This document shows positions 686-39,906 of a stretch of DNA of 64,000 nt, in pieces. The stretch comes from Candidatus Marinacidobacterales bacterium (GTDB lineage: Bacteria > Acidobacteriota > Vicinamibacteria > Marinacidobacterales > SMYC01). The position numbers and the translations under genes were made by a program. Under the pieces are notes generated by a model that saw only the letters and a list, made by a program, of their open reading frames with translations, searched no databases and was not told the origin of the DNA. The stretch covers positions 3,662,966 through 3,726,965 of the forward strand of contig CBDFNJ010000002.1 in assembly GCA_965250115.1 (NCBI GenBank), read 5' to 3'. Position 1 is the first letter of the stretch; each line of letters starts with the position of its first letter.

Positions 686-887
686 CACCAATGTCGGCAC
701 CAATCTCGTGTGATCGGAACCTTATCGTATACGCAAAACGGAGGCCAACGCCAAGGCCAGCTCTCGTGGCGTCTCGTGTCTCCCCAATAGGCCGAGACGA
801 CCTATTGTGGAGACGGGGAAGGGCTGGTCCCTGAGCTAGCGTACCTGGCCCTGTCGTTGTAACGTTGGGGCAACGAAGGGCTACCTT

Positions 888-2159
888 ATGAAAACACTGC
901 GCCTCCTGGCTTTGTCGGGCCTCTTGCCGATCTCTTTGCTCGCCACGCTCGTATTCAGCGATGAAAAGACCGCGCCAGGCTGGCATCAGTGGGGAGGGCC
1001 GGATCGCAACTTCCACGCGAAGTCGACCGGGCTCGCGATAGCCTGGCCGGCCGGCGGTCCGAACAAGCTCTGGAGTCGCGCGCTCGGCGAAGGCTACTCG
1101 AGCATTGTCGCCGACCCGGACGCGCTTTACACCATGTACCGTGTCGACGACGACGAGATCGTCGTTTCCCTCGAGGCGGCGACCGGGACGACGCGCTGGG
1201 AGCATCGATACGAAGCGCCTCTGCTCGAGCACATGAACTACGGCATCTGGCTGAGGCGGGGCGGCGCCGGCCCCTATTCGACACCTCTTTTGCTCGGCGA
1301 TGTGGTCTATGCGGTTGGGGCGACGGGCAAGTTCCATGCTCTCGATCGCAAAACGGGCGACGTTCTCTGGTACCACAACCTGGACGAGAAGTTCGAGATG
1401 AGGGGCTACAGCGGCTACGCATCGAGCCCGATCGTCTACGACGGGAACATCATCCTGCCTGTCGGCGGCCGCGGAAAGGCCGTCGTGGCTTTCGATCCCG
1501 CGAGCGGCGCCGTGGTCTGGAAGAACCAGGACTTTCGTCTCGCCCCAGCGTCACCCATCTTGATCGATGTCGACGGTCAGGACCAACTCGTCGTGTTCAC
1601 TCCCGAGGACGTCGTCGGGCTCGATCCCAAGAACGGCGACCTTCTGTGGAGCCACCCTCACAAGACCGAATATGGCCTGAACATCAGCACGCCGGTCTGG
1701 GGAGAAGGCGGCTTGCTGTTCATCTCATCCGCATACAACGGCGGAAGCCGTGTGATTCGTTTGACGCGTGCGAACGGCGAGACCACGGTGGAGAAGCTCT
1801 GGTCGACCAACCGCCTGCGCCTGCACTTCGGCAACGCCATCCGCATCGGCAACTTGATTCTAGGCACCAGTGGCGACTTCGGCCCGGCATTCTTCATCGC
1901 GGTCGATGTCGAAACTGGCGAAGAGGCCTGGAGGGAACGCAGCTTCGGCCGGTCCCAAATGGTCCATGCTGAAGGAAAGCTCGTTATCGTCGACGAAGGC
2001 GGCGACGTTGCGATTGCCTCGGCCGGTCCCAACGGTCTCGAAGTGCACGCGAGAACGGAGCTCCTGACGGAAAACGCCTGGACCGCACCGACACTCGTGG
2101 GAACGCACCTCTACGTCCGGGACCGGAAAAACATCGTGGCCGTGGACCTTGGAGAGTAG
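888..2159 (+). CDS. secreted PQQ-like beta-propeller repeat protein (BamB/YVTN-like)
   Basis: 423-aa ORF with signal peptide MKTLRLLALSGLLPISLLATLVFS. It has repeated Y/W..G.VYA....G.L.A.D..TG...W units typical of PQQ/WD40-like beta-propellers. Ends with a TAG stop. Confidence 0.8.
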   Translation: MKTLRLLALSGLLPISLLATLVFSDEKTAPGWHQWGGPDRNFHAKSTGLAIAWPAGGPNKLWSRALGEGYSSIVADPDALYTMYRVDDDEIVVSLEAATGTTRWEHRYEAPLLEHMNYGIWLRRGGAGPYSTPLLLGDVVYAVGATGKFHALDRKTGDVLWYHNLDEKFEMRGYSGYASSPIVYDGNIILPVGGRGKAVVAFDPASGAVVWKNQDFRLAPASPILIDVDGQDQLVVFTPEDVVGLDPKNGDLLWSHPHKTEYGLNISTPVWGEGGLLFISSAYNGGSRVIRLTRANGETTVEKLWSTNRLRLHFGNAIRIGNLILGTSGDFGPAFFIAVDVETGEEAWRERSFGRSQMVHAEGKLVIVDEGGDVAIASAGPNGLEVHARTELLTENAWTAPTLVGTHLYVRDRKNIVAVDLGE

Positions 2160-2203
2160 CCACGAGCGGGATGAGCACTCTGGCGTATTGCCCGAGCGCT
2201 TGA

Positions 2204-3592
2204 TCAAGGAAAGCGGAATCGAAGGGTCGTTAGGAACTCATCGTGGCCGATATCCTTGCTCGCGTCGATATCGTGAAAGGCGTACTCGAACGTCAGGTCG
2301 ACATTGCTCACGATAGTGACCCGGGCGCCCACGTCGATCTTCGCCCAGTCCCAGAACAGACTGGGCGCGACGAAGCCGGCCGGCGCGCGAAAATCGTTGT
2401 CGAGCCTGGCGTAGCGGAAGACAGGCTCGATCGCGGTGAACAGCGCTCCCGGATCCCCCGGGTCGCCGGACTCGATGCGATAGCCGACTTCGATCTCGAG
2501 GCCCTGGCGCGGCAGCGACGCCGACTCCTCGTTCACGAACTGGAAGAAAGCTCCGAGGTTTCCGAGCTGGGCGTCGAGGTTGAAGCCCCACTCCTTTCGG
2601 TCGTTACCCGCGATGGGAAGACTGACGCCGGCGCCATCGAGTAGGTCGAGGTCGCCTTCGTAGAAGGTCCCGTTCAGAGGAGCTGATTCCGAAAGCTTCG
2701 TTTGGTAGTAGAAACCGAAGACGTCGAGCCCAACGAGCTGGTCGTCCGACAGGAGCCGAAGGCCCACACCGGCTCCGGTCTCCAGGTGATCGTCGAAGGC
2801 GACTTCCTCGACCTCCGCGTGATAGAGGATGGGGATTCCTGCGTTGAAAGTGATCTCGGGGTTGGGCGGGGCTTCGACGCCGTTGTCACCGGCGAGAGCG
2901 TTCGGATCGCGCATGAAGATCGGGTTACCGTTGCTGACCTGGAACCGGAAGTAGAAGTGCTGCCCGAGACTGCCCCCGAGCTGAAACTACAGATCGTTGA
3001 ATCGGTTGAACGCCGTCTGAACCAGTCCGTAGCTCTCGAGCCGACGGAAGAGCTGGCGCTCGAACTTGGGCGCCTTCCCGAACAGAGCGTAGAGGTGGCT
3101 CCCGTGGATCGCCTCGAGCGATTCGTACTTCATGCCGAAGCGAAGGTAGGCCTCGTCGACGTCGACGTTGCGATCGCCGCTCGTTGGATTCCGGTCGTAG
3201 AGATCGACAAGATCGATCTTGACGCGCCCGAAGATCGACCGGGGCAGATTGGCCTCCAGAAACACCGTTGCCTTGCTGAGCTCGAGTGAGGAGCCCGGCG
3301 ACGGGGTTCTCAGCTCGACCCGATCTCGATTGGCCGGGATGAAACCATCGGGGAAGAAGGGAAGCGCGAAGAAGTCGTCCTCGGACCATCGGTAGTGCGC
3401 CTTGACCTCACTGGAGACTTGGAAAATTGTCTCGGAAGGCTCTTCGAACGGGACCTCGTCTGCGCTAGGGAAGAGACCGGAGACAACGACAGCAGGACAG
3501 CGAGAGGCAAACGACGCGGGATCATCGACAACAACTCCTGAAGAGAGGACAATTTCCAAAAAGGGGTCAATACCAGTCGCGTTTCCGGGCAC
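2204..3592 (-). pseudogene. hypothetical beta-rich (possibly outer-membrane) protein interrupted by a single in-frame TAG
   Basis: Track ORFs 2987..3592 and 2204..2914 lie in the same minus frame. They are separated only by TAG (plus-strand cta at 2987..2989). Read through, it gives ...NRFNDL*FQLGGSLGQHFYFRFQVSNGNPIFMRDPNAL... Confidence 0.5.
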
Positions 3593-3621
3593 GTTCGGGG
3601 TCTGCTATTATAGCAACCTCA

Positions 3622-4305
3622 TTGTATCGGTCGAAGATGAACAAGACATTTCTTCTTGTACTCACGCTACTCTGGACTCTTCCCGCATCGAGCCGGGCCC
3701 AGGTCTCGGGCCAGGTCGAAGTTCTGGAAAAAGGCGGCGTGAAGCGCCCCGTCATTCAGGACGTGCTCGTCTATATTGACGGCGTTTCCGTCGAGACAAC
3801 GACGCAGGGTAGCGCCCGGCACCAGACGATCAGGTCCCGCAACAAGGCGTTCGAGCCCCGCGTCGCGGCGGTGCTCGCCGGCACGACGGTGACATTCCCC
3901 AACCTCGACGACATCATGCACAACGTGTTCTCGCTCTCGAAGGGAAACCGCTTCGACCTAGGACTCTACAAGTCGGGTGCGCAGAAGGACTTCGTGCTCC
4001 GGAATCCGGGCCTGGTTCGCGTCTACTGCAACATCCATCCGCAGATGAGCGCCTTCGTTCACGTCACGGACAACCCCTATTACACTTGGGCGCAGCCCGA
4101 TGGCGCGTTTCGCATCGAGGGTGTCCCACCGGGCCGCTACACTCTGAGGGTCTGGAATGAGCAGGAAGAGACGACGAAGCCGGTGCTCGTGACCGAGCAG
4201 GGAGCGAGCGGCGTGCTCGTTCAGCTCGACGTGAGCAGCTACAAGAGGCGCCCCCATCTCAACAAGTTCGGCAAGCCGTACAAGAAGAAACGTGGCAAGT
4301 ACTGA
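3622..4305 (+). CDS. secreted cupredoxin-like protein with C-terminal carboxypeptidase-regulatory-like beta-sandwich
   Basis: Signal peptide MNKTFLLVLTLLWTLPASSRAQ (alternative start 3637). It has a His in IMHNVFS and YCNIHPQM (Cys-x2-His-x2-Met), an amicyanin/pseudoazurin-type type-1 copper ligand pattern. The C-terminus AFRIEGVPPGRYTLRVWNE resembles CarboxypepD_reg. The 3' end overlaps the start of the downstream sensor by 14 bp. Confidence 0.7.
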   Translation: MYRSKMNKTFLLVLTLLWTLPASSRAQVSGQVEVLEKGGVKRPVIQDVLVYIDGVSVETTTQGSARHQTIRSRNKAFEPRVAAVLAGTTVTFPNLDDIMHNVFSLSKGNRFDLGLYKSGAQKDFVLRNPGLVRVYCNIHPQMSAFVHVTDNPYYTWAQPDGAFRIEGVPPGRYTLRVWNEQEETTKPVLVTEQGASGVLVQLDVSSYKRRPHLNKFGKPYKKKRGKY

Positions 4306-6931
4306 ATCCTTGTGGTCTCGGCTCAGCCTGCAGGCGAAGATTTTCTTTCTCTCCCTTTCACTCGTCGTCGGTCTCACCGGCGCACTCCTCCTGTTCTCGT
4401 ATCAACGCGCGACCCGGCTCGCCAACGAGTCGCTCAGCCGGGCTCTGACCAGTACCCGTCAGCTCTACAAAAATCTCGAGACCGACCGTCTCGAGAAGCT
4501 CGCGCTCATCAACTCGGTCCTCGTCGAAAGCCCGTACTTCAAAGCGGCGGTCGCGGAGATGGACGCGGCGACGACACTCGATTCCACCCTCGACATGGCC
4601 GAGCAGGTCGGAAGCGATTTCATGATCGTGACCGACTACGAGGGGAGAATCGTCGCTCGCACGGACGTTCCGACCCAGAGCGGGAGGGATCTCTCGACGA
4701 CCCCTCTCGTCGGTTATGCACTCGGGGGTGAGAGTGCCGGCGGTGTCTGGGGCGAAGACGGCCACCTTTACCACGCCGTTTCGGTTCCCTTGCTCGTCGG
4801 GCCCGAGCTGCTCGGAGCCGTCGTCACCGGCTACGAGATTGGCGACGAGCTCGCCCTTTACATCAAGGGCATCGCGGGCTGCGAGGTCGTTTTCTTTTCC
4901 GCGACCGAGAACGAGGCCTATCGCGAGACGGGCTCGACGCTCGCCGAAGCGACGAGCACGCTCCGGGAGTGGGTCGAGGGAGCCTCGATGGCGTCCGCGG
5001 AGGAGGACGTCCGGCTGTCGCTCGGAGGGGAGGAGTATCAGGCGGTCTTCGCCCCACTGACGACCGTCGACGACGAGCCGATCGGTCTGTTCGCGGCCCT
5101 GCGCTCGAGAGATCGCGAGCTCGCAGCGTTTCGCTCGTTTCAGCGCAACGTGCTGCTCGTCGGTGTGCTCGGTATCGGGCTCGCCGTCCTCGCGAGCCAC
5201 CTGCTCGCGCGTGGCGTGGTCCGGCCTCTCAAGAAGCTCGTGACCGTCACCGATCGTATTCGCGAGGGCGACTACGGAAGCGACGTCGAGGTCAACTCCG
5301 GCGACGAGGTCGGCGCGCTCGCGAAGAGCTTCCGCGCGCTCCTGGGAGAGCTTCGCGAGAAGCAGGTCATGGAGAAATTCATCTCTCGCTCGGCCGCAGA
5401 GATGATTCAGAAGTCCGACGCCGTTTCCGTCGTCACCGGCGGGCGCCGGGCAGTCACCGTGCTCGTCTCCGAGCTGAAATCGTACGCCGCCTTCAAGGAC
5501 GAGAGCGCGGAGCCGAGCGCCGTTCTCGAGCGGGTGAATCGCGCCCTCGAGCGGCAGGCCGAGCTCGTCGAGCGCTACGGCGGGCAAGTCGACAAGTTCG
5601 TCGGCGACCGGATGATGGCCGTCTTCAAGGGGGAGGACCGGGTCTGGCCCGCGATTCGCTGCGCGATCTCGATCCAGCATCTGCTCGAGGCCGATGGCGA
5701 CGAAGAGGCGCTCATGCCGGGCATCGGTGTCAGCGCGGGTGAAGTGATCTTCGGCGCCGTGGGTAGCTCCAATCGGCTCGACTATTCACTGCTGGGGCCC
5801 ACCGTTCACGTGGCCGAGCGCCTGGCTAGCGAAGCGCCTCCGGGCGACGTGCTCCTCGCTCAGAACGCCTACGCTCAGGTTCAGGATCGCGCGTCGGCTG
5901 AGTCGCTGAAACCACTGAAGCTCCAGGGTATCGACGAGGTGATTCCCGTCTACAGCCTCTCGACGGGTACGATTCGGGGGCAGCAGATCGCCTCGTCGCG
6001 GACGGACGCCGGGCTTTCGCAGCGGGACGCGCCCACGCTCGTGGATGGCACCCAGGAGCCGGCCATGACACTCAGCTCGCTCGAGCCGGGCGCGGTGCTC
6101 GGCAAGCGATACGAGATCCGGCGCGTGCTCGGCAGCGGCGGGATGGGGATGGTCTTTCAAGCGAAGGACCACGACCTCGACGAGCTCGTTGCGCTCAAGG
6201 TGCTGCGCCCGGAGATCGCCTCCATGAATCCCAGCATTCTGGAGCGTTTCAAGACCGAGATCCGCGTCGCGCGGCGGATCACCCATCGCAACGTCGTTCG
6301 GACTTTCGACTTCGGCGACGCCAATGGCATCAAGTTCATCAGCATGGAGTTCGTTCAAGGCATGACGTTGAAGCAGCTCATTCGCAGCAAAGGAGCCCTG
6401 CCGATCAGCGTCGGCCTCCAGATCGCGAAGCAGGCATGCAACGGTCTCGTCGCCGCTCACGAGCAGGGCGTCGTCCACCGCGACGTCAAACCGCAGAACA
6501 TGATGCTCACGCCGCAGAGCGAAGTGAAGATCATGGATTTCGGCATCGTACGCGAAAACGGCGAATCGAGCATGACGCAGACCGGGCTGGTGATTGGCAC
6601 ACCCGACTACATGTCTCCCGAACAGGCGGAGGGCAAGGCGGACCTGGATCAGCGAAGTGACATCTATTCGTTCGGGGTGGTGCTCTACGAAATATTCACG
6701 GGGTCGACGCCGTTCAAGGGAACGACGCCAATGGGCGTCGCGATGCAGCACATCCAGGATGCGCCTCCGATACCGCGAAGCCTGAACTCGCAGCTCCCGT
6801 CGGACGTCAAGCAGCTCATCCTGCGCTGCATGCAGAAAGCCCCGGACCAGCGGCATCAGAAGATGGCGGACGTCCAGGCCGAACTCTTTCGCGTCTCGGC
6901 CGCGGTGTCCCGCCAGAGCGCCACGGCTTGA
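4292..6931 (+). CDS. transmembrane sensor: periplasmic domain - HAMP - class III nucleotidyl cyclase domain - Hanks-type Ser/Thr protein kinase
   Basis: 879 aa. TM1 is FFLSLSLVVGLTGALLLF, followed by a periplasmic region of about 250 aa, then TM2 VLLVGVLGIGLAVLASHLLA. HAMP is LKKLVTVTDRIREGDYGSDVEVNSGDEVGALAKSFRALL. The cyclase-homology domain is RRAVTVLVSELKS...VDKFVGDRMMAVFKG...LGPTVHVAERLA. Kinase motifs are GSGGMGMVFQA, ALKVL, HRDVKPQNMML, DFGIV and GTPDYMSPEQ. Confidence 0.9.
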   Translation: MASTESLWSRLSLQAKIFFLSLSLVVGLTGALLLFSYQRATRLANESLSRALTSTRQLYKNLETDRLEKLALINSVLVESPYFKAAVAEMDAATTLDSTLDMAEQVGSDFMIVTDYEGRIVARTDVPTQSGRDLSTTPLVGYALGGESAGGVWGEDGHLYHAVSVPLLVGPELLGAVVTGYEIGDELALYIKGIAGCEVVFFSATENEAYRETGSTLAEATSTLREWVEGASMASAEEDVRLSLGGEEYQAVFAPLTTVDDEPIGLFAALRSRDRELAAFRSFQRNVLLVGVLGIGLAVLASHLLARGVVRPLKKLVTVTDRIREGDYGSDVEVNSGDEVGALAKSFRALLGELREKQVMEKFISRSAAEMIQKSDAVSVVTGGRRAVTVLVSELKSYAAFKDESAEPSAVLERVNRALERQAELVERYGGQVDKFVGDRMMAVFKGEDRVWPAIRCAISIQHLLEADGDEEALMPGIGVSAGEVIFGAVGSSNRLDYSLLGPTVHVAERLASEAPPGDVLLAQNAYAQVQDRASAESLKPLKLQGIDEVIPVYSLSTGTIRGQQIASSRTDAGLSQRDAPTLVDGTQEPAMTLSSLEPGAVLGKRYEIRRVLGSGGMGMVFQAKDHDLDELVALKVLRPEIASMNPSILERFKTEIRVARRITHRNVVRTFDFGDANGIKFISMEFVQGMTLKQLIRSKGALPISVGLQIAKQACNGLVAAHEQGVVHRDVKPQNMMLTPQSEVKIMDFGIVRENGESSMTQTGLVIGTPDYMSPEQAEGKADLDQRSDIYSFGVVLYEIFTGSTPFKGTTPMGVAMQHIQDAPPIPRSLNSQLPSDVKQLILRCMQKAPDQRHQKMADVQAELFRVSAAVSRQSATA

Positions 6932-7035
6932 CCCGCAGTGGCGTGGCCGAGTGGCTGGCTATCGGAGTTACTGCTAGACTGTGCCGTTCGAAGGTCGGCA
7001 AAGACGGGGGAATTGGATTTCCTCGAGGAGGAAAG

Positions 7036-8625
7036 ATGAAGGGGTTCCAAGTGATTGGTGTCGCGTTCCTCGTGCTCGCTGTCACTGTGGGTACGGTGGC
7101 AGCTCAGGGTGATGACGTCGGAACGCTCGTTTTTCCGACATCGACGAAATCACCCGAAGCGCAGGCGCGGTTCCTGCGTGGCGCGGCCATTTTGCACAGC
7201 TTCGGATGGAAGCAGGCCATTACCGAGTTCCAGGCGGCGCAGAAGCTGGACCCGGACTTCGCCATGGCCTACTGGGGTGAGAGTCTTTGCTACAACCATC
7301 CGCTGATCGGCGACAGGGATCTGGATTCGCCTCGTGCAGTCTTGAAGCGGTTGGGAGCAACGCCTAGAGAGCGGCTTGCGAAAGCGCCCACGGATCGGGA
7401 GAAGGGTTTTTTGCAAGCGGTCGAGCTTCTGTGGGCCGAAGCAGATATCGCCGAGCGCAAGATTGGCTACATGGAATCCATGCGAAGTCTCTACGAGAAA
7501 TACTCCAAAGACGACGAGGTCGCTTCGCATTACGCGCTGGCGACAATCGCCGCCGTGCGCCCTACCGGTGACACTACCTCCCGGATGTACGTCGAGGCCG
7601 GGGCGATCGCCCTGGAAGTGTTCGGGCGGAATCCGAGTCACCCCGGTGGCGCTCACTACACCATTCATGCTTTCGACGACCCGGTGCACGCGCCGCTGGC
7701 GCTTCCCGCCGCCCATCGCTTCGCGGAGATTGCGGAAGCCGTATCGCACGCGCGTCATATGCCATCGCACATCTTCATTCAGCGCGGCATGTGGGAACGG
7801 GTCTCGATATCCAACCAATCCGCTTACGAAGCTGCCATCAACCTGTGGGAGCCGGGAGACACCATGGGTGGTGCGCTGCACGCGCTTGAGTGGGGGCAGT
7901 ATGGCGATCTGCAGCGCGGCGACTACGCCAAAGCCAAGACCTGGATGGAAAGGCTCGAGGAGCTGAACGAGAAGAGAGGCTCGCAAGCTCGCGGTGTGTC
8001 GGCCGTGCCGCTGGTGAAAGCGCGCTACGTTCTGGAGACGGAAACGTGGGACGTTAAGCCGGTGACTGAGAAGTCGTCCGCGCACGAGCTTCTGGCGACG
8101 GGTATCAGCGCCTACCATACCGGAGACAAGGCGACGCTCGAAAAAGCCGCCGGTCAGATCCGTGTCGTAGCCGACAAGCAAGCGGCGGACATGTCGCTGT
8201 ACAACCGAGTCGCGAAACCGACGCGCGTCGCGCAGCACGAGGTCGAGGCGCTCGACGCACTGGCAAAGGGTGACAAGATGGGCGCCGTCGAGCACCTCAA
8301 GAAGGGCGTGGAGCTGGCCGAAAGCATGGGTCGACCCAATGGGCCTGCCACACCGTTGAAGCCCGTGCACGAGATCGCCGGAGAGGTTTTCTTGGAGATC
8401 GGCCAGCCGGAAGAGGCCGCGCTGTTCTACCAGGAGTCGCTTCTGCGCACGCCCAACCGGCCCCTGTCCGTTCGTGGACTGGCCCGCGCTCATGCGGCGA
8501 TGGGCAATCGCTCGCTGGCCAGCGAGCAATATCGGAAGCTCCAGAACATCTGGAGCGGGTATTCTGTGCCGGGTCTGAACGAGGTGTCGGACTATCTCAC
8601 TTCAACGGATGCCGAAGGTCAATAA
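7036..8625 (+). CDS. secreted tetratricopeptide-repeat protein
   Basis: ATG at 7036 follows GGAGGAGGAAAG. Signal peptide MKGFQVIGVAFLVLAVTVGTVAAQ. TPR-like repeats (AMAYWGESLCYNH...; LARAHAAMGNRSLASEQYRKL). The track ORF starts earlier at 6928, but that N-terminus lacks a signal peptide and overlaps the upstream gene. Confidence 0.8.
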   Translation: MKGFQVIGVAFLVLAVTVGTVAAQGDDVGTLVFPTSTKSPEAQARFLRGAAILHSFGWKQAITEFQAAQKLDPDFAMAYWGESLCYNHPLIGDRDLDSPRAVLKRLGATPRERLAKAPTDREKGFLQAVELLWAEADIAERKIGYMESMRSLYEKYSKDDEVASHYALATIAAVRPTGDTTSRMYVEAGAIALEVFGRNPSHPGGAHYTIHAFDDPVHAPLALPAAHRFAEIAEAVSHARHMPSHIFIQRGMWERVSISNQSAYEAAINLWEPGDTMGGALHALEWGQYGDLQRGDYAKAKTWMERLEELNEKRGSQARGVSAVPLVKARYVLETETWDVKPVTEKSSAHELLATGISAYHTGDKATLEKAAGQIRVVADKQAADMSLYNRVAKPTRVAQHEVEALDALAKGDKMGAVEHLKKGVELAESMGRPNGPATPLKPVHEIAGEVFLEIGQPEEAALFYQESLLRTPNRPLSVRGLARAHAAMGNRSLASEQYRKLQNIWSGYSVPGLNEVSDYLTSTDAEGQ

Positions 8626-8675
8626 ACTGACTTAGCACGCCACGCGAGGGCGGAGGCTTTGAAGCTTCCGCCCTC
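8521..8675. repeat. direct repeat copy A (3' end of TPR gene plus hairpin), partner at 10168..10321
   Basis: agcgagcaatatcggaagctccagaacatctggagcgggtattctgtgccgggtctgaacgaggtgtcggactatctc...gagggcggaggctttgaagcttccgccctc recurs 1.65 kb downstream. By eye the copies are about 85-90% identical. Confidence 0.85.
8646..8675 (+). terminator. GC-rich hairpin downstream of TPR gene (gagggcggaggc-tttgaa-gcttccgccctc)
   Basis: 12-bp inverted repeat with a 6-nt loop, 20 nt after the stop codon. No clear U-tract follows. It is conserved in repeat copy B at 10293..10321. Confidence 0.35.
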
Positions 8676-8784
8676 TTCGCGCAAGGTCATGGCGGACGCA
8701 CACGGCGAAAGTCAGCGCGGGGAATTGCCATAGGTCCGGCTGCATGCGCCGGATTCTAGCCGCTCATAGTGCCTGCGCCACCTC

Positions 8785-10044
8785 TTATCTTGATTCGCCA
8801 CACCAATCTAAGATGGAGGCAGCCAGAATCTTGGTCGCCATTATTACATCATCTACCGCCACCCACTCATTGTTGGCATGCATCTGTTCCGTCTTTCCCG
8901 GTCCGAAGATGACCGTCGGTGTTTGGCCAGGCATGTTCAAGAATCGAATATCGGCCGCTCCCTCCCGGCCGCAGATTTCCGGTTCGTGCCCAGTTAACTC
9001 CCGAAACTTACGAGCTATTGTTTGGACAATTGGGCTGTCCACTGGTATTTCGGAAGGCACAGCAAAATACCCGGTAAAAACAATTTCCGGTGGATGTTCG
9101 GCCAGCCAAGAATCGGAGGCGACGTATTCCCGGACAAAAGATGTGAATTCAGCTTTGACAGTATCAGAATCTTCGCCCGGCACCGTGGCAAGGCTACCTT
9201 TCAGAAGTGCAGTGTCGGGGAAGGCGCTGTTGTAACTGCCCGCCTCGAATGCACCCACCATGCAAGGAATCGCATTCTTGATGTTCGGATAAAGTGGATG
9301 GCTCGACCTAGACATGCGGAGCTTTTCGAATTCGGCGACGGCTCGAAGCACGGGGTAAGCCTTTTCAATGCCATTGACACCTTCCCACTGGCGCTGAATA
9401 CCTGCTGCTTTGCCCCTAACCGTAATTTCAAACCAGATGCGCCCAATGGATGCTGGCTGGACCTTCATGCTGCTGGTCTCGCAGCAAATTCCTGCGTCCG
9501 CCTTGTACCCTCGCATGACGCAATCTAGCGTGCCGTTTCCGCTAAGCTCTTCATCCACGACGTATTCCAGTATGACGTCGCCGGCCAGTTTGACACCAGA
9601 ACGGACCACGGCTTCTACAGCCATAGTCATAGCGGCAACGCCCGCTTTCATGTCCGAAGTGCCACGGCCATAGATCCGGCCGTCAGCCAAATCTCCAGAC
9701 CAGGGTCCGTGCTCCCAGGCTTCTTTCGCACCAGCGGGAATAACGTCAACGTGTCCATTGAGCAGTAGGGACCGGCCGCTGCTATTCCCCTTTAGGGTAG
9801 CGACCACGTTCGGGCGGCCTTCGTATCCGCGAGAAACTGGAACATAGGCAGGATGTTTCTTAAGAGCCTCCCAGTCCGGCTCGAATACATCGACAGCAAG
9901 CCCTAAATCCGCCATCTTCTCGGCAATAAACTTCTGGATCTCCCCTTCGCTACCGGTCACGCTGGGGTAAGCGATGAGTTGCTGCAAGAATATGATGACA
10001 TCCTTCGACATCGAATCAACAGTATCCAAAACAGTTTCTTTCAC
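8785..10044 (-). CDS. M20 family metallopeptidase (ArgE/DapE/ACY1/CPG2-like deacylase)
   Basis: 419 aa. Motifs GHVDVIPAG, GRGTSDMKAG and VVDEELSGNG resemble the M20 metal-binding motifs (H, D, EE). The region is visibly more AT-rich than its surroundings. Confidence 0.9.
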   Translation of the reverse strand: MKETVLDTVDSMSKDVIIFLQQLIAYPSVTGSEGEIQKFIAEKMADLGLAVDVFEPDWEALKKHPAYVPVSRGYEGRPNVVATLKGNSSGRSLLLNGHVDVIPAGAKEAWEHGPWSGDLADGRIYGRGTSDMKAGVAAMTMAVEAVVRSGVKLAGDVILEYVVDEELSGNGTLDCVMRGYKADAGICCETSSMKVQPASIGRIWFEITVRGKAAGIQRQWEGVNGIEKAYPVLRAVAEFEKLRMSRSSHPLYPNIKNAIPCMVGAFEAGSYNSAFPDTALLKGSLATVPGEDSDTVKAEFTSFVREYVASDSWLAEHPPEIVFTGYFAVPSEIPVDSPIVQTIARKFRELTGHEPEICGREGAADIRFLNMPGQTPTVIFGPGKTEQMHANNEWVAVDDVIMATKILAASILDWCGESR

Positions 10045-10167
10045 CTAACCTCCTTCAAACTTATGAATCTCAGGATTGTTGTAAATGATATATCAGGCGT
10101 TAATTGGTGTCAGTCGCAAAGCACAGACCAGGCAGATTGCCTTCATTGTTGCAAGCTCCGTTCGACA

Positions 10168-10321
10168 AGCGAGCAATATCGGAAGCTCCAGAACATCTAG
10201 GGTGAGTATTCTGTGCCAGGTTTGAAAGAGGTGTCGGACTATCTCGCTTCAACGGACGCCGAAGACAATAAACTGATCCAGCACGCTTCGCGAGGGCGGA
10301 GGCTGAGAAGCTTCCGCCCTC
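10168..10321. repeat. direct repeat copy B (degenerate duplicate of TPR 3' end plus hairpin)
   Basis: Aligns with 8521..8675. It would encode SEQYRKLQNI*GEYSVPGLKEVSDYLASTDAEDNK with an in-frame TAG at 10198..10200 (TGG to TAG relative to copy A). It is not attached to any upstream TPR body. Confidence 0.8.
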
Positions 10322-10482
10322 AGTCTTCTGATTCTGGCTGCGTTTATCGAGATCTCAACCGACTTGACGCTCGCATGGGGAAGGAGAACCACCAGGCGTC
10401 GCGACACAGTCATGGAGCTTGCTGTATAGTCCTGCCAGAAGTGAGACGTGCCTATGTCCACTAGCAGATAGATCGAAGTGTT

Positions 10483-12066
10483 ATGCGCATTTTCCTAATT
10501 CACATTCGCGACCCTCAGTTCTACGCACTGCCTGCGAAGACCGCTGCCCGGAACGGCAACATTCGAGTGATGGGCTTCCCTCCCATTGGCATTATGTCGC
10601 TCTCCGCCGTACTCAAACGCGACGGTCATGAGTGCGTCATGTTCGACCAGGCCAATCCGGAAACGCCGAACGACGTCATCCTGGAGGAGATCCGACGACA
10701 GCTGCCGGAACTGGTGGGCTTGAGCTTTCTGAGCACCACAAGCTACCCCTATGCGAAATTGCTCGTCCGACAGATTCGAGCAACTGATTCAGCGGTACGA
10801 ATCGCTTTCGGCGGGGTCTTCGCCACCTTGAATGCCGAGCGGGTGAAGCTGCAATGTCCCGAAGTCGACTTCGTGTGCCGTGGTGACGGCGAGCAATTGA
10901 TTCTGGACCTCGTGGAACGATTGGACGACCCCACCGGCGTCGCCGGAGTCACCTGGGTCAAAGACGGCGAGCTGGTTCACAATCCCGACCGGCCTCTGGA
11001 CCGCGATCTCGACCAGTGGCCTTTCCCCGACCGAGATAGTCTCGCGCTGGATTTCGTCGAGTCGATGCCTCTCGACGTCCCTGCCGTCCTGTCCCTGGAG
11101 CGGTTTACCACCATGCAGACCTCGCGCGGTTGCCCCTGGCCCTGCGTGTTCTGTGATATTCCGGTCTTCAGTGAAGGGAAGTGGCGCTCGCGCAGTCCCG
11201 AGCATGTCGTAGCGGAGCTCGACCACCTGCAGGCATTAGGCTACGGATCGGTCTATTTCGTGGACGACCACTTTCTGCTGCAACCCAAGCGGATCGAGGC
11301 CATCTGCAAGGGAATCAATGATAGCGGCATCACGATCGAATGGGGCTGCGAAGGGCGCGTCGACTCGGTATGCCAACACCTTTTTCCAGCCATGGCCAAG
11401 GCCCACTGCCGGACGCTCATGCTAGGGATCGAGAGCGGCAGCCAGAAGGTTCTCGACCGGCTCAAGAAGGAGCAGACGCTCGCCGAGGTCGAGACCACCG
11501 TGAGCAATGCCAAAGCGGCCGGAATCGAAATCGTGCACGGGTTTTTCGTCGTTGGGAGCCCGGACGAGACGGCCGAAGACGTCCGCGCCACGTTCGACTT
11601 CGCCTCGAGGCTTGCTTTAGACACCTTCGGCTTCAACCGCCTGTGCGTCTACCGCGGCACCCCCCTCTGGCATGAGTACGTCGAGCGCGGCCTCGTTGAC
11701 GACGCGAACGATTGGTACAAGTATTTCAAGTGCACCGAAATCGACCCCACCTGCCTGTCCGGCGAGGCGGTGAACGCCGAGCGCTCGGCCGGCTTGCGAC
11801 GTTTGTTCCGCTACAAAATCAGGCACTATCCGCTCCAGACCCTCCGCCTGCTGTGGCGTTTTCTCCGTCATATGCCGATACGCGACGTGGCCTACCTGAT
11901 CGTCAAGCCGTTTCTCGGAGCGAAGCGCGGAGAGACCAAGGCCGAGGTGATGTCGCGTGCCGTCGAGCACAGGGCGTCCAAGGATGCGGCGGCAGATCTC
12001 ACGAAGGTGAGCGACGACATCCTCTTGAAGACATACGACTCACAGCCCGAGCGCCGCGCCCAATAG
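10483..12066 (+). CDS. B12-binding domain radical SAM protein
   Basis: N-terminal cobalamin-binding-type domain (VMGFPPIGIMSLSAVLKRDGHECVMFD; alternative start 10570). Radical SAM cluster motif RGCPWPCVFC (Cx3Cx2C), then GIESGSQKVLDRLKK. Long C-terminal extension. Confidence 0.9.
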   Translation: MRIFLIHIRDPQFYALPAKTAARNGNIRVMGFPPIGIMSLSAVLKRDGHECVMFDQANPETPNDVILEEIRRQLPELVGLSFLSTTSYPYAKLLVRQIRATDSAVRIAFGGVFATLNAERVKLQCPEVDFVCRGDGEQLILDLVERLDDPTGVAGVTWVKDGELVHNPDRPLDRDLDQWPFPDRDSLALDFVESMPLDVPAVLSLERFTTMQTSRGCPWPCVFCDIPVFSEGKWRSRSPEHVVAELDHLQALGYGSVYFVDDHFLLQPKRIEAICKGINDSGITIEWGCEGRVDSVCQHLFPAMAKAHCRTLMLGIESGSQKVLDRLKKEQTLAEVETTVSNAKAAGIEIVHGFFVVGSPDETAEDVRATFDFASRLALDTFGFNRLCVYRGTPLWHEYVERGLVDDANDWYKYFKCTEIDPTCLSGEAVNAERSAGLRRLFRYKIRHYPLQTLRLLWRFLRHMPIRDVAYLIVKPFLGAKRGETKAEVMSRAVEHRASKDAAADLTKVSDDILLKTYDSQPERRAQ

Positions 12067-12109
12067 CTTTGGTGGTTGCCCCAGTCGCTTGTTGAAGTGT
12101 TTAGATCTG

Positions 12110-12452
12110 CTATCGCCCCGGCGGGCCAAGGGGGCTCTCTGGACAATCGGTGCGCTCCACGGTGTAGGTTCCGCCCGCAATCTTCCAGCCATCGTGCGTT
12201 CTCACGAGCTGGAAGGCGTCGATGCCGCAGTGGCTGAACTTCCCGTCTCGATGGAAGTCGTAGCGGGTCCACGCGACCGCGATGTCCTGATGAATCATCA
12301 CCTTCGGTTCCCACATCCTCTCGAGGACCCGTTCTCGCCGGGAGCCGGTCGACGAAGTCTTGATTGGAAAAGCTGCGGATGGAATCCGCGACGAGCTCGG
12401 CGCCACTGGCGGAGTTCGTCCTGCGCGTCGTGAAAGCACTCTCGCTGCAGCA
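12110..12452 (-). CDS. NTF2-like (SnoaL/DUF4440-type) small protein; N-terminal half apparently in another frame (possible frameshift)
   Basis: The C-terminal 68 aa (MWEPKVMIHQDIAVAWTRYDFHRDGKFSHCGIDAFQLVRTHDGWKIAGGTYTVERTD) look like the end of an NTF2-like fold. Upstream, the track frame is low complexity, whereas another frame reads SGAELVADSIRSFSNQDFVDRL. The N-terminus is unresolved. Confidence 0.35.
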
Positions 12453-12971
12453 CTAGTCGGCTTTCGGCGGGACGCCGGCGAAAACGTTGACGCGAGGCTG
12501 CGGGTTGCCGTTGAGCCGTCGCCAGGCATTAATGTGGCCGACGCGAGTCAGCGCGTCCGATAGCGGGCCGTTCAGAATGAACCAGACAGGAAACCGAGAG
12601 CCATCACGCTTCAGGACCCCGTGGGTCGCGAGCTCTTCGTCGGAGACGCTATCGAGTTGCTGACGGACTCGACGCAAGCATTCGAGAGTCCGGTCACGAA
12701 GCTCTCTCGCGTCCTCCGTTTCGATGGAATCCCGTTCACTCGCGTCGAATACGCATTGCTTGACCATGTTAGCAAGGTGAAGGACGTGTTTCAGGAGCTC
12801 GCGCATCGACATGCTCTCGGGTCCGGGACGAAAATCGAAGTCCTCGTCGCAAAGTCCCTCCGTCGCCCAGTAGTAGCGAAACGCGAGCCCGTCCACGACT
12901 CTGGCGAAAACGGAGGCGCCGGTGAGCTTTTCCGGTGCCGATGAGATCTCGTATCCGAAACGTTCCGTCAT
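12453..12971 (-). CDS. DinB/YfiT-like family protein
   Basis: About 170 aa from MTERFGYEISSAPEKLTGASVFARVVDGLAFRYYWATEGL... to ...HINAWRRLNG. Helical bundle-like with conserved His residues. TAG stop. Confidence 0.55.
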   Translation of the reverse strand: MTERFGYEISSAPEKLTGASVFARVVDGLAFRYYWATEGLCDEDFDFRPGPESMSMRELLKHVLHLANMVKQCVFDASERDSIETEDARELRDRTLECLRRVRQQLDSVSDEELATHGVLKRDGSRFPVWFILNGPLSDALTRVGHINAWRRLNGNPQPRVNVFAGVPPKAD

Positions 12972-13164
12972 AACTCGTCTCCGCGGGACGGCAAAGGGTA
13001 TCACCAAGCGGCTGCTACGATGGGTTGCCTTCGCCCGGACGCAACGATAGTTTCAGTTCCCACTCGGGTTCATGTTCACGACACGCCGACATTTCCTTGC
13101 CAAAAGATATGATCGGAATCTCGTACTTGTCATATTGACGGTGCGGCGAGTACCATCACGTCGG

Positions 13165-13183
13165 CTATTTTTTAAAAAAATAG
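13165..13183. promoter_or_regulatory. AT-only palindrome CTATTTTTT-A-AAAAAATAG directly upstream of the TonB-dependent receptor start
   Basis: Perfect 9+9 inverted repeat in a GC-rich context. It abuts the SD-like GGGAGAG and the ATG at 13194. Candidate operator. Confidence 0.4.
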
Positions 13184-13193
13184 GGAGAGCGTG

Positions 13194-14921
13194 ATGTTCA
13201 AAAGAAACATTCTGTTGACCACGATGTGCGTTCTCACCGCTATGGGCCTTTTGGCCCAGACTCAGATCACCTCCGGCGTGATCCGAGGCCGCGTTCTCGA
13301 TCAGACAGACGCCGTGCTGCCAGGAGTTACTGTCGAAGTCAGAAACACGGACACCAATCTGATGCGAACGATCGTTACGGACGGGGAGGGGCGCTTCGCG
13401 GCGCTGGCACTGCCACCGGGCCCCTACGTCGTCACCCTCACTCTACAAGGCTTCGCCAGGTTCACTCAGGACGGCGTGATCTTGACCGTGGGGCAGGCGA
13501 TCGACCTCACCATACAGATGCAGCTTACCGGGGCCCAGGAGACGATCACCGTCACCGGTACGACGCTCGTGCAAGTGTCCCGAACAGAAGCGAGCTCTAC
13601 GCTGAACCAGACGACGGTGGAGACGACACCGGTGCTGGGTCGCAAGTTCGAGGACCTGCTCACGCTCACGCCCGGTGTCAGCATCGTGCAGGGACCCGAT
13701 GGTGACATGATCAACTTCGCCGGGCAACGCGGGGCCTTCAACAATATCAGCCTGGATGGAGGCGACTACAATAACGGTTTCTTTGGCGAGCAGGTCGGCG
13801 GGCAGCGGGCCAACGTGGACATCACGCTCGACGCGATTCAGGAGTTCCAGGTGGTGGCCACGGGAGCGAACGCCGAGTTCGGCCGTACCGCCGGGGGCGT
13901 CGTCAACGTCGTCACCAAATCGGGCACCAATCGGGTGAGTGGAAGCGTCTTCCACTTCCAACGCCTGGAAGCGCTGACGTCCGAGGCTTCGGATGGCACG
14001 AAACTCACCGACTTTCACCGTGAGCAAACCGGCGCCACGGTTGGCGGGCCTATCGTCCGCGACCGAGCCTTCTTCTTCGTGGCTGCCGAGAACATCGGCG
14101 GCAACTTCGAACGGCCCAACCTGGGCCGGGCTATCGGAGAGCCCTGCTCCATTCCGAACCCCAACATTATGACGGACGAGGCGCTCATCAACTCCAGCGG
14201 GGATTGCCAGCACGTGGCGCTCCTCAACTTCTTTCAAGACGAGCTGGGGATGGACGAGGGACGTCCGGTGAAACACCCCATAAGCACAACGTCGGTTTTC
14301 TCCAAGTTCAACTTTCGCGTGGCGGATGGGCACGATCTCTCCGTTTCCTACAATTTTCTGGACTCCTCGAACGAAAATGCGACCTTTGACGTCGACACCT
14401 ATGGCACCTCGGCGAACGGGATCGAGGGCGACCAGGCGCGCATCCATGTCCTGAACTTGAATCTCGTCAGCACACCCTCGACGACGTTGCTCAACGAGCT
14501 CCACTTCACCTATTCGCGGGAAGATCGCCCGCGCACGGCGGCGAGCTCTAACTTGGCCGCGGACACCGGGATGGGATTCGACCCCTCCTTTCGCTTCGGT
14601 AATCCCTTTTTTCTCCAGCCCAACGTCGACGAGTTGTTCTGGCGCACGCAGATCAAGGACAACGTGACCATCGTGGCCGGCGATCACACCATCAAAGTGG
14701 GAGGTGAGTGGATCCACTCGGTGAACGACCAAGTCTTTCGCGGCTTCTTCACGGGACGCTATATCTTCGATAGCACGACGGGCTTCCTGCGCTACGCTTC
14801 GCCCGCCGCGCCGGGAGGATACGGCCCCACTACGGTGACCTGCAGCGACGACAGCTACGTCACCTACCCGGCACCCTGTCCGGGCGGCGGCGATTTCACC
14901 GGCGGGCCCCTGCTTTTTTAG
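13194..14921 (+). pseudogene. TonB-dependent receptor (CarboxypepD_reg + plug type), C-terminally truncated
   Basis: Signal peptide, then CarboxypepD_reg-like ITSGVIRGRVLDQTDAVLPGVTVEVRNTDTN...DGEGRFAALALPPGPYVVTL. Plug-like TPGVSIVQG...GQRGAFNNISLDGGDYNNGFFG follows. The ORF ends after 576 aa at a TAG 44 bp before metF. Full-length receptors of this type are about twice as long, so the barrel is mostly missing. Confidence 0.6.
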
Positions 14922-15991: not shown

Positions 15992-16898
15992 TCACTCCCC
16001 TCCACCACGAGCCAGTAGGGATCGGCGTCGAGTCGTTCGAGCTTCGTCCTTGGATCGGACTAACGAACCGTAGAACCGTGATAGTGAGGGTATTCGTCCT
16101 GAGGGCGCGTTAGCTTCGCGTCGATCAGACGCGAGAGAAGAACGCGACGAATCGCCGCAGCCACGGAGCGGGCTCATCGGATTCGTTGTCGTAGTTCGAG
16201 AGCGACGAGAGCGAGCTTCCACCTTTCGAATAACTGTGACGGTGGGGTCCTCGGCCATTGCCGTGCGCTCGTCGGGCTCGAATCGGAAACGCCCGTGCGT
16301 GGAGAAACACAACTTTCGGAATGCCGTCATGCCGTCCTGATCGGCGTACTCGGCATGTACGACGTTGCCCGCTTCGATATAGATGCGACCCGGCCGACGA
16401 GCGCCATTGGCGATCGTGACCCGTCCCGTCTTTCGGCTCGCGAAGAGAAACTGGAGCACATCGGGAAGATGGTCGTCGCCAAGCGCGCCCTCTAGTGGGC
16501 CTCGTGGCTTGGGTTCGTAGCGCAGCCGACGCGTTTTCGCGGTGAGGAGGCGCATGGTGCTCAGGAGCTCGTCGTCGGTCGCGTCGATCCTGGCGCTGCC
16601 CTCGGTGGAATAGACCGGCGCCAATTGGGGTTTCTTACCGATCAACATCAGCACCGGAATGTCGTGCGTCATCGGATCGTCCTTGATGCTCCTGGCAATC
16701 TCCGATGGGCCCGGCGGTGCGATATCCGGTGACAGCATCACAAGGTCGGGCTGGGATCTCCTCAGCACCGCCTTCGTCATGGAGCCCGAGTTGGAGCTCA
16801 AGACTTTGAAGCCGCCTCGGCGGGCGAGGGCACGGTATCGCCCTGACGGGTGATCCGGACCCGGACCCTCTACGATTAGAACCGTGCGCTTAGACATG
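15992..16898 (-). CDS. response regulator: CheY-like receiver domain + DUF4388 (PATAN-like) domain
   Basis: Start MSKRTVLIVEG (ATG 16898..16896). Receiver ...DLVMLSPDIAPPG...IPVLMLIG. DUF4388-like LPDVLQFLFASRKTGRVTIANG...IYIEAGNVVHAEYADQDGMTAFRKLCF. The C-terminal tail is low complexity. The track ORF's longer N-terminus (to 17080) looks spurious. Confidence 0.8.
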
Positions 16899-17151
16899 GC
16901 ACCCAAGACGCAGCGCAGATACACGAACGGTAGTAGATCGAGGCGCGCGCCATTTCGAACCGTAGTACTGCAAACCGCGGTCCATCCGCTCGAACTTCGT
17001 CGACGGAAAGGACTTGCGTGATCTCGGTCACGTTCGAGCCGTGCGAGAGTGTTCAAAAACCCGACACTCGAGTTTGTCAAAACCCTTTAAGTTTAGACAA
17101 GCTATTGAGTTACACAGGACCAGCGATCTGTAAAGGTAGCCGACGTGTACT

Positions 17152-38031: not shown

Positions 38032-38507
38032 TCAACCTGTCCACTTTTCCTGGGCAAGGTCACATGTGGGCAAGCTGTGCCGGACAAGGCGGTGGCCGAG
38101 ATGGAACGTCTGCGCCTCCTAGTTGAAGGGGTCAACAACAAAATCCGTGTGCTGCAACGACGCGCCTACGGCTATCGCGACGAGGAATATCTCAAGCTGA
38201 AGATCGTGGCGGCATTCCTTCCGCCATTACCCAGAAATGCCGTCTTCAACCCACACGAATCCGCGTAGACCCTCTTTTTCTTTCCGACCCAACCCGGAAG
38301 CGAAACCACCTGGGGGGCGAAGGTTTTGCTGCTTGGTCTCGTTTTCCTCATTGCGAGCGTGATGGCCGCGTGTCAGCCCGGGCAGGGACGGCTTCCGGAA
38401 CGCCGCCAAAGTTAAAGTGACCCCCGGCAAGGCCGGGGGCCTATTCATAAGAGCCCCTCGAAGGGGCTGTTCATGAGCCCCCTAAAGGGGTCGATCTTGC
38501 TCCCCAA

Positions 38508-38619: not shown

Positions 38620-38671
38620 TATGAACCGCCCCGGGTTTCCCGGAGACCCCAACTCTTGAGAGGATGGAGTC

Positions 38672-39906
<1,235 letters not shown>

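Follow-up and report, generated by a model that had tools for sequence, protein, structure and literature searches.

The M20 metallohydrolase gene analysed here lies between the live 3' end of an intact TPR gene (copy A) and an old leftover of that same gene end (copy A'), in a 64-kb stretch of Candidatus Marinacidobacterales DNA, hereafter the window. The model that accounts best for this arrangement, to which we would give about an even chance, is that a one-sided, homology-anchored recombination (insertion-duplication) displaced the 3' end of the resident TPR gene, IS and MITE elements remodelling the junctions afterwards.

An initial annotation of the locus had described imperfect direct repeats of about 150 bp, 85-90% identical. 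Alignment bears this out: positions 8521-8675 (A) match 10168-10321 (A') at 88.4% over 155 nt (BLAST E 8e-53). The match falls into two gap-free blocks, 97 nt at 91% and 56 nt at 88%, with a 1-nt indel between them, and both edges are sharp. The window holds these two copies and no third, on which ground a dispersed repeat or REP-like element was rejected as an explanation; no copy was found outside the window's species in ~1.4 Mb of fetched loci. Copy A comprises the last 105 bp of the intact TPR gene (7036-8625, plus strand; 529 aa, Pfam TPR_2), including the stop codon, and 50 bp containing a hairpin. Copy A', on the same strand, is an orphaned, decaying version of this gene end with its own hairpin; it lies between the divergent promoters of M20 and the radical-SAM gene, has no gene body, as had been noted, and carries a 1-nt deletion near its end. 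The in-frame TAG reported in it is present at 10198-10200, where A has TGG, but is private to this strain, since the sister strains L006 and L007 keep TGG. Overall the two copies have diverged by 11-14%, and polarisation of private substitutions assigns ~8-9 to A', ~2 to A and ~3 to the tails of the related loci L008 and L010. The similarity stops exactly at the 3' base of the hairpin, after which the A' side runs into the radical-SAM block. Copy A' represents the dead 3' end of a TPR gene and did not arise as a fresh target-site duplication; it should be flagged in annotation as a pseudogene fragment, and the 155-bp direct repeat that flanks the M20 segment is neither an IS target duplication nor an IS end.

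The hairpin first described as having a 12-bp stem is present in both copies, although the stem is 13 bp. Hairpin A (8646-8675), between the convergent TPR and M20 genes, is predicted to fold into a G+C-rich stem with a 4-nt loop (dG -35.4 kcal/mol, z -5.4), and hairpin A' (10292-10321) reaches -32 kcal/mol. The stems of A and A' show 0/26 differences, against 7/21 at non-stem positions (Fisher p=0.002). Both have the G+C-rich stem-loop of an intrinsic terminator; the U-tract is absent, TTCGCGC following hairpin A and AGTCTTC following hairpin A', and a canonical terminator scan called neither. An Rfam search over 8300-10700 returned no RNA family, just two sub-threshold chance matches, and the hairpin pattern had no match in JGI metagenomes. 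In L001 and L008 other sequence replaces the hairpin after AATAAACT. No gene is terminated by A', and yet both stems remain perfectly conserved.

Between the repeats, M20 occupies 8785-10044 on the minus strand and is, as the initial annotation had it, the sole ORF of note in 8676-10167. Its description as divergently oriented holds with respect to the radical-SAM gene only; with TPR it is convergent. The product belongs to the ArgE/DapE deacylase subfamily (Peptidase_M20, with matches to PF01546 and PF07687, Pfam assignment covering the genes at 4292-14921), matching TIGR01910 over its full length at 278 bits (cut-off 217.6) and reaching no equivalog model. The visibly lower GC of the segment is real (53.4% in 8676-10167, 61.0% in the window), and the suggested comparison of codon usage places M20 4th of 52 in codon-usage distance; its GC (0.535) and GC3 (0.564) are the lowest among the 52 ORF-defined genes of the window (means 0.613, sd 0.024, and 0.727, sd 0.060), in keeping with the proposal that the gene was acquired. 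Outside the clade, the relatives that bear a name are ~70% identical and carry the labels Thermodesulfobacteriota, Deltaproteobacteria and Bacillota, none being labelled Acidobacteriota; metagenomic relatives stand at 76-78%. Values of dN/dS are 0.09-0.33. M20 is thus a horizontally acquired gene, intact and under purifying selection, and the acquisition was rightly called old: dS between lineages is 0.07-0.11, and A and A' differ to the extent given above.

M20 is found in at least five contexts. The unit 8785-10167 has ~96% nucleotide identity with its counterparts in L008-L013 and L096-L104, which lie in other surroundings, and the homology ends at 10166/10167; the AT-rich upstream region (10045-10167) therefore travels with the gene, to which it had been attributed. 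It contains an RBS (GGAGG) and, according to a promoter scan, a sigma-70-like match at 10113-10085, and of the private changes in this non-coding region most fall on the window lineage. The native 3' flank of M20 is present in L008, L010, L014, L096 and L097, reduced to 17 bp in L001 and absent from the window.

The history of the orphan tail can be read from the relatives. In at least four related lineages of Candidatus Marinacidobacterales the promoter side of the M20 unit carries what is left of a TPR tail, and the contexts differ, so the orphan tail is older than their split. Before these lineages diverged, M20 and ~110-120 bp of its own upstream sequence had been fused on the promoter side to the last 159 bp of TPR, at a joint equivalent to window 8466/8467, and M20 and tail have since been carried jointly into different contexts. 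Each of the loci L008-L013 and L096-L104 has a TPR tail on the promoter side that begins at the position corresponding to 8467, as is seen upstream of M20 in L008, L010, L096 and L097, which suggests that the segment originally duplicated (TPR tail, stop codon and hairpin; 8467-8675 on the plus strand of the A side) and hence the orphan tail was at least 209 bp long; in the window 8521-8675 alone is still duplicated. The left edge of A' at 10168 arose by a later deletion, for relatives retain a further 54 bp of TPR and, with it, a MITE-like block. Alignment places the old junction between M20 and TPR tail at 10157-10167, as TCCGTTCG followed by GACA.

The TPR protein has full-length homologues at up to 84% amino-acid identity, and the gene's dN/dS against L002/L003 is 0.27. 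Intact TPR of the window type occurs only in the window's species; sister lineages have fragments (a 5' fragment in L001, tails in L008, L010, L096, L097 and L101-L104), and in no relative is a second TPR copy longer than 159 bp. L001 has a 32-bp tail remnant at the same junction, with the radical-SAM gene adjoining, and on the 3' side of M20 a 5' fragment of TPR (6945-7490) beside a homologue of window 1-2166, from which it follows that the window TPR stands at the ancestral position. The locus L095, which encodes an identical TPR protein, was considered as a possible insertion-free allele; it proved to be arranged as in the window, except that repeat elements cut M20 at 8860.

Copy A is 96% identical to the sister-lineage tails, as near as the M20 units are to one another. 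From the distribution of private changes, and from a dS between lineages (0.07-0.11) close to the divergence of A from A' (11-14%), it follows that A and the tail were nearly identical when the lineages split, as would be expected if the donor DNA came from a close relative or from this genome itself. Two tail sites are in conflict, AGT uniting A' with L008/L010 and GGG uniting A with L008/L010, and this requires one homoplasy or some gene conversion; with too few sites, two of them conflicting, the tail phylogeny was dropped as an arbiter between models.

On the other side of A', a B12-binding radical-SAM block identified by Pfam (10392-12090, plus strand) behaves as a separate conserved unit. 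Its similarity to L001 and L016-L018 begins at 10392-10401 and extends to 12061-12090, enclosing the gene itself (10483-12066) and ~90 bp of its own conserved upstream region, with a promoter-like site at 10401-10430 in a promoter scan. The 70-bp spacer between hairpin A' and this block (10322-10391) is found only in the window's species. Similarity of the sequence after the hairpins (109 bp and 70 bp) to the post-tail sequence of L001 and L008 was at chance level by shuffle test in all comparisons but one, and the exception (109 bp against L008, 4/500 shuffles) was dropped as not surviving 12 tests. It had been suggested that in related genomes TPR might be followed directly by the radical-SAM gene; 80 radical-SAM loci taken from GTDB genomes, and the TPR orthologue loci, contained no such case, synteny being poor throughout.

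The segment had also been judged unrelated to IS activity, which proved wrong; the statement that no transposase or inverted repeats are present is correct for intact elements, but 8695-8786 (minus strand) is an IS-end remnant, and the sister strains carry IS elements. The remnant corresponds to the 5' end of an rve-family transposase gene (5' UTR and ~12 codons), matching at 77-80% (E ~2e-10) a stretch that runs from upstream of the rve_3 ORF into it in L096, L101 and L102, and should be flagged as such in annotation. Its 92 bp lie against the M20 stop codon and have taken the place of the native 3' flank. The stretch between the repeats is accordingly a mosaic of a 19-bp spacer (8676-8694, between hairpin A and the remnant, found only in the window's species), the IS remnant and the M20 unit. 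IS activity is in fact pervasive, further insertions being visible at the strain level: an IS256-family element inside A' in L004 and L005, flanked by a target duplication of 8 bp; a junction with an ISAzo13-family element at 8631, beside hairpin A, in L006 and L007; and an IS3-family element in the tail of L103, with a 3-bp target duplication for that family. Independent breakpoints cluster within 2-10 bp. One and the same contig has the M20-A'-radical-SAM segment in two places, L004 and L006.

According to the model that we favour, donor DNA from a close relative would have carried TPR, hairpin and, further on, M20; homology within TPR would have anchored one of its ends, and the other would have entered the resident TPR at ~8467 by an illegitimate joint. 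The mechanism would be homology-facilitated illegitimate recombination (HFIR), although a single-crossover insertion-duplication gives the same product: an entire TPR gene, M20 as passenger, and then the tail of the resident TPR, displaced but still joined to its own downstream DNA (hairpin and radical-SAM gene). HFIR, single-crossover integration and C-terminal displacement are documented sources of orphaned 3' gene regions (PMC3240628; PMC5361080), and the locus has the parts of an HFIR product, namely an intact gene, imported DNA and an orphan 3'-end fragment starting inside the ORF. As to the microhomology, TCCGTTCG is present at the junction, the joint itself being covered by the MITE-like insertion in relatives and by the deletion in the window. 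Neither the donor arrangement (intact window-type TPR followed by M20, with no orphan tail) nor the empty recipient site (TPR followed by radical SAM) was encountered in the TPR orthologue loci, the 80 radical-SAM loci or the ~20 M20 loci. In the window lineage the intact TPR lies on the 3' side of M20, so that live A and orphan A' bracket it, and both junctions were remodelled later. At the old junction a MITE-like block was inserted, most of it being deleted subsequently together with 54 bp of tail, which produced the edge at 10168; at the other, an rve-type IS replaced the native M20 flank and was then itself truncated to the 92 bp that remain. Given this IS scar at the A-side junction, the joining of intact TPR to M20 may also have been IS-mediated.

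That sister lineages hold only TPR fragments, and no intact window-type gene, would also fit a history in which the TPR ORF was interrupted at 8466/8467, and so inactivated with no duplication, by M20 and its native flanks, after which the window lineage alone regained the TPR 3' end (8467-8675 onward) from an intact allele and the old tail became A'; a simple insertion is, moreover, mechanistically easier than a duplicative one. This course nevertheless requires an extra in-register recombination with an intact window-type TPR donor, of which there is none among 5.8 billion proteins outside the window's species. Copy A, in its 96% identity to the sister-lineage tails, bears no foreign sign, the predicted junction of TPR (up to 8466) with native M20 flank is kept in no lineage, and the L001 junction, at ~7490, lies at microhomology, as expected for a later deletion; we consider this history unlikely. 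The same final structure would result if TPR and hairpin had been duplicated in tandem, M20 later entering between the copies and the second copy being deleted up to 8466, with no homology-anchored import. Segmental duplication does occur in the species, as L004 and L006 attest, and A and A' had hardly diverged when the species split; yet relatives keep at most 159 bp of the second TPR copy, and two events (duplication, then insertion with deletion) are called for in place of the one in the favoured model, so that we give this alternative only a minor chance.

Genomic islands are classically recognised by a duplicated gene 3' end on either side of DNA of foreign composition, and the repeats here do enclose such DNA. 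An element using the TPR 3' end as its attachment site could have integrated, restored the gene and left attL/attR-like repeats, the integrase and most of the island being lost since. However, no integrase lies between or beside the repeats, or beside the M20-tail unit in ~20 loci, where IS transposases are the genes next to it. The homology, at 209 bp or more and lacking any defined core, is longer than expected of an att site, and the L001 and L008 tails lack the hairpin. An origin as a decayed island is on these grounds very improbable. The initial annotation had itself proposed a cassette acquisition or duplicative insertion near a terminator, with no part played by IS. Read as a recent, local event that brought in M20 as a 1.5-kb cassette and created the 155-bp repeats, this would fit the sharp repeat edges and the lower GC between them, but a clean insertion of this kind has almost nothing left to recommend it: the left edge of A' was produced secondarily, by deletion, the orphan tail is fused to the promoter side of M20 in other species too (at least four lineages, in unrelated contexts), the inter-repeat segment is itself mosaic and has lost the native M20 3' flank, and A and A' differ from each other as much as species do.

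The TPR tail and hairpin might also be more than a scar, serving as a recombination handle or hot spot that can be used repeatedly: exchange between A and A' would release M20 as a circle able to re-enter any genome with a TPR homologue, and the AATAAACT-plus-hairpin site and 8596-8598 could be points at which several unrelated IS families prefer to enter or break the DNA. If true, this would explain why M20 always travels with the tail, why the stems are conserved and why breakpoints cluster, though we rate its probability as slight. The clustered breakpoints and conserved stems are the sole points perhaps worth more work.

Among known systems, the locus does not resemble an IS or composite transposon: 8676-10167 contains no transposase gene beyond the 92-bp remnant of one's 5' end, and its ends have no terminal inverted repeats besides the two hairpins and no short (2-14 bp) target duplication. 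Nor does it match an integron cassette, M20 having its own RBS and promoter-like site in place of a promoterless start, and the hairpin is no analogue of attC, as it does not travel with M20, which in other contexts is accompanied by a different, native 3' flank. A repeat-flanked gene of low GC is thus not necessarily a self-contained cassette. With genomic islands at gene 3' ends bounded by att repeats the locus shares a segment of foreign composition flanked by the duplicated 3' end, but it has no integrase, the segment is 1.5 kb, the homology is at least 209 bp, and the unit later moved as an IS passenger. Campbell-type single-crossover insertion-duplication (PMC3240628) likewise leaves direct repeats of the homology around inserted DNA and, where the integrating fragment carries a gene 3' end, one complete and one truncated copy; here, in contrast, no circular intermediate or vector is evident, and the repeats are 11-14% diverged and trimmed by later deletions. 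The C-terminal displacement of Rhs, CDI and T6SS effectors, attributed to HFIR (PMC5361080), likewise yields an intact gene, imported DNA and a promoterless 3'-end fragment, with orphan modules that begin inside the ORF and imported DNA anchored by homology on one side only. Unlike those loci, ours involves no toxin/immunity system; the two tails are nearly the same and do not represent polymorphic variants; what is carried is a convergent metabolic gene; a single displacement is seen, with no array; and the mechanism is a proposed one. Finally, IS-end and MITE remnants at both junctions, strain-level insertions and relocation of the segment between IS copies are as seen in the remodelling of other IS-rich bacteria. 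The locus is ordinary genome scarring of a known kind in an IS-ridden acidobacterial genome, with no new element or mechanism, and provides a worked example, from the large IS-rich genomes of marine acidobacteria, of how an acquired gene becomes lodged beside a resident gene, leaves an orphaned 3' fragment behind and is then moved by IS.

Copies A (8521-8675) and A' (10168-10321) form the direct repeat of the 3' end of the TPR gene and its hairpin that the initial annotation had described: they align in two ungapped blocks, of 97 nt (91%) and 56 nt (88%), with one indel between them, at 88.4% identity over 155 nt (BLAST E 8e-53). The repeat is abrupt at both edges, and BLAST finds no third copy in the 64-kb window. 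The TPR gene (7036-8625, plus strand) is intact, encoding 529 aa; copy A comprises its last 105 bp, the stop codon and a 47-nt module ending in a hairpin (8646-8675; 13-bp G+C stem, -35.4 kcal/mol). A' is, as described, without a gene body: TAG at 10198-10200 replaces the TGG of A, one nucleotide is deleted close to the former stop codon, and there is no ORF upstream. Its hairpin (10292-10321; 13-bp G+C stem, -31.6 kcal/mol) terminates no gene, A' lying between two divergent promoters. Both hairpins lack a U-tract, and no Rfam family matches anywhere in the region. Within the 47-nt module stem bases differ at 0 of 26 positions and the remaining bases at 7 of 21 (Fisher p=0.002); such identity of the stems amid diverged bases suggests that the hairpin, which in A' has no gene upstream, is subject to selection or gene conversion. 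In the other-species loci L001 and L008 a different sequence, common to both, replaces this hairpin after AATAAACT.

The only gene between the copies encodes an M20 metallohydrolase of the ArgE/DapE deacylase subfamily (8785-10044, minus strand), convergent with TPR and divergent from a B12-binding radical-SAM gene (10483-12066). The lower GC noted for this segment is borne out (53.4% in 8676-10167 vs 61.0% in the window), and of the 52 ORF-defined genes M20 comes last both in GC (0.535; mean 0.613, sd 0.024) and in GC3 (0.564; mean 0.727, sd 0.060), while it ranks fourth among them in codon-usage distance. Its low GC recurs in every related lineage. Named relatives at ~70% identity are labelled Thermodesulfobacteriota, Deltaproteobacteria, Clostridia, Negativicutes or Bacillota, never Acidobacteriota; among those at 92-97% identity is a set on multi-Mb contigs. 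Composition and the labels of the ~70% relatives together make a horizontal origin of M20 well supported, and a dN/dS of 0.09-0.33 argues that the gene is functional, not decaying.

Relatives were sampled as about 20 fetched loci with M20 at 90-100% identity. Those of the same species are 99.6-99.7% identical to the window in nucleotide sequence. Two (L004, L005) show the window layout plus a 3,016-bp IS256-family element inside A', at 10266-10273, with clear terminal inverted repeats, an 8-bp target duplication (CAATAAAC) and a nested IS3-like insertion; they also carry ~950 bp extra at 2696-2705, with a 10-bp overlap, probably another mobile element. Two more (L006, L007) contain window sequence from 8631 onward, reaching 13184 in L006 and 12770, where the locus ends, in L007. 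It comprises hairpin A, M20, A', the radical-SAM gene and, in L006, DinB; at 8631 it is joined to an ISAzo13-family element, in chromosomal surroundings unlike those of the window. In L095 the TPR protein is identical and M20 is cut at 8860 by multi-copy repeats. L004 and L006 share ERZ25071127 contig_15 (692,685 bp), where M20-A'-radical SAM-DinB occurs twice, at 329-347 kb and again at 679-693 kb, which is the end of the contig. Either the segment is truly duplicated, over at least 5.4 kb, or sequences of different strains were joined in the assembly.

Among the loci of other species, L001 and L015, from one genome, are ~96% identical in M20 and keep the radical-SAM, DinB and outer-membrane genes in window order. 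Of TPR they retain just a frameshifted piece of the 5' part (6945-7490), on the 3' side of M20, and 32 bp of the tail (equivalent to 8597-8628), on its 5' side; they lack 2167-6944 (4.8 kb), which holds an 879-aa dCache-HAMP-cyclase-Ser/Thr-kinase fusion (4292-6931), the homologue of window 1-2166 lying ~90 bp from the TPR upstream region. In two further contexts, a low-GC, IS-riddled glycoside-hydrolase region (L008, L009, L096, L101-L104) and a site adjoining the same outer-membrane gene, inverted (L010-L013, L097-L099), homology with the window extends from exactly the M20 stop (8785) to 10166/10167; beyond it come a ~185-bp block and then TPR tail from the equivalent of 8467. L014 (90% nucleotide identity) has M20 in yet another context, with no TPR sequence at the M20 locus. 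Since the tail lies on the promoter side of M20 in at least four lineages, the association predates their divergence; A' is the window's version of this shared orphan tail, which originally spanned at least 209 bp on the window scale (8467-8675). The relatives' junction reads ...GCAAGCTCCGTTTGACAT, block, then TCCGTTCGTGGACTGG..., and that of the window ...GCAAGCTCCGTTCGACA, with a jump to AGCGAGC (8521-equivalent); the sharp left edge at 10168 thus results from a deletion of ~240 bp, namely the block and 54 bp of tail. The block looks MITE-like, having ~24-bp terminal inverted repeats and a flanking CTCCGTTYG duplication; its end matches two inverted copies in L016, a radical-SAM relative. 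Many 60-190-bp repeat copies are present in L016 (e.g. 296-382, 3021-3101, 7284-7438, 10984-11173, 14097-14253, 14491-14596, 16835-16906), as in L095, and a 2.6-kb segment between two inverted copies has an M20D-type amidohydrolase ORF and no transposase, all pointing to a very MITE-rich genome.

At the other end of M20, a native 3' flank of 130-162 bp is common to L008, L010, L096 and L097 (~40 bp in L014); 17 bp of it are fused to TPR at ~7490 in L001, at microhomology, and it is missing from the window. Here 8695-8786 matches the beginning of an rve_3 transposase gene in L096, L101 and L102, namely its 5' UTR and the initial 12 codons (77-80%, E ~2e-10). The match indicates an IS-end remnant against the M20 stop codon, contradicting the earlier view that IS activity was not involved, and the segment between the repeats is itself a mosaic.

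With the L002 and L003 TPR genes (83% identical) as outgroups for polarisation, private changes number ~8-9 in A', ~2 in A and ~3 in the L008/L010 tails; the non-coding M20 upstream region has most private changes on the window lineage. M20 synonymous divergence between the window and sister lineages is 0.07-0.11; between A and A', 11 of the 108 tail positions are mismatched, and 18 of 129 when all non-stem positions are counted. These values are consistent with A' having decayed neutrally from about the time the species split, while selection maintained A; the tail and A were nearly identical then. The conflict between two informative sites calls for some homoplasy or gene conversion.

The uninterrupted order envisaged in relatives, TPR directly followed by radical SAM, was found neither in 80 radical-SAM loci of GTDB genomes nor at the TPR orthologue loci. 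Among the 80, only L015 has TPR or M20 nearby; L016-L018, the closest other radical-SAM relatives, share only 10397-12090 with the window. TPR orthologues, none of them above 84% identity, have unrelated surroundings, and the window-type gene is intact only in the window's species. A former linkage of TPR tail to radical SAM is nevertheless supported by the order tail, spacer, radical SAM in both the window and L001. The radical-SAM protein is 77-83% identical to MAG proteins labelled Binatia, Nitrospirota, NC10, Verrucomicrobiota, Planctomycetota and others, and reaches no NCBIfam equivalog cut-off (best HpnJ, 159 bits vs 578); such cross-phylum conservation is unusually high for an enzyme without assigned function.

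The neighbourhood bears other marks of rearrangement. The CarboxypepD_reg/Plug outer-membrane (TonB-dependent-receptor-like) gene (13191-14921) encodes 576 aa, 575 aa in L004/L005 and 1013 aa in L001, L010 and L097; given the longer protein and ~1.3 kb extra in L015 between the equivalents of 14920 and 14914, it appears truncated by deletion in the window's species. An IS3-family element (38622-39939) is 98.4-98.6% identical to copies in L102 (9945-11259) and L103 (6249-7567, 9828-11142), whereas the M20 unit (gene and upstream region) of that other species is only ~96.5% identical, which suggests recent spread of the element between genomes; one other-species copy lies inside the TPR tail. 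Immediately beside the window's IS3-family element lies a 212-bp element (38410-38621), probably a MITE or IS fragment; L096 10737-10948 and L101 10773-10984 match it at 98.6% identity, and L012, L102 and L103 match it more weakly. Breakpoints cluster at 8628-8631/10266-10273 (IS256 target duplication, ISAzo13 junction, switch between hairpin and alternative sequence) and at 8596-8598, where three independent ones lie no more than 2-3 bp apart: here the L010/L097 tail stops on its right side, the L001 remnant starts on its left, and an IS3-family insertion in L103 has its 3-bp target duplication.

An intact gene, imported DNA and a promoterless 3'-end fragment that starts inside the ORF and runs into its own downstream DNA are what one-sided, homology-anchored recombination would yield; single-crossover insertion-duplication would give the same product. 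The illegitimate joint would lie at 8466/8467 and the donor would be a close relative, an account to which we give about half of our confidence. Two others, a simple split of TPR with subsequent repair and a tandem duplication of TPR with later entry of M20, seem unlikely, equally so; the data do not separate the leading models sharply, as the loci yielded no donor and no allele with an empty site. A decayed integrase-type island is less probable again. Least credible is the local cassette insertion with its own duplication proposed in the initial annotation: M20 is indeed foreign, but the tail is shared by at least four lineages and the edge of the repeat is secondary.

The repeat described in the initial annotation is confirmed, and the reading given to it is supported in part. 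We regard the feature as a scar that old displacement and duplication left around a gene gained by horizontal transfer, within a genome rich in IS elements. Such scars are of an already known kind, and this one is of low general interest: Rhs, CDI and T6SS loci likewise have orphaned 3' regions, for which one-sided, homology-anchored recombination is the accepted explanation (PMC5361080; PMC3240628).
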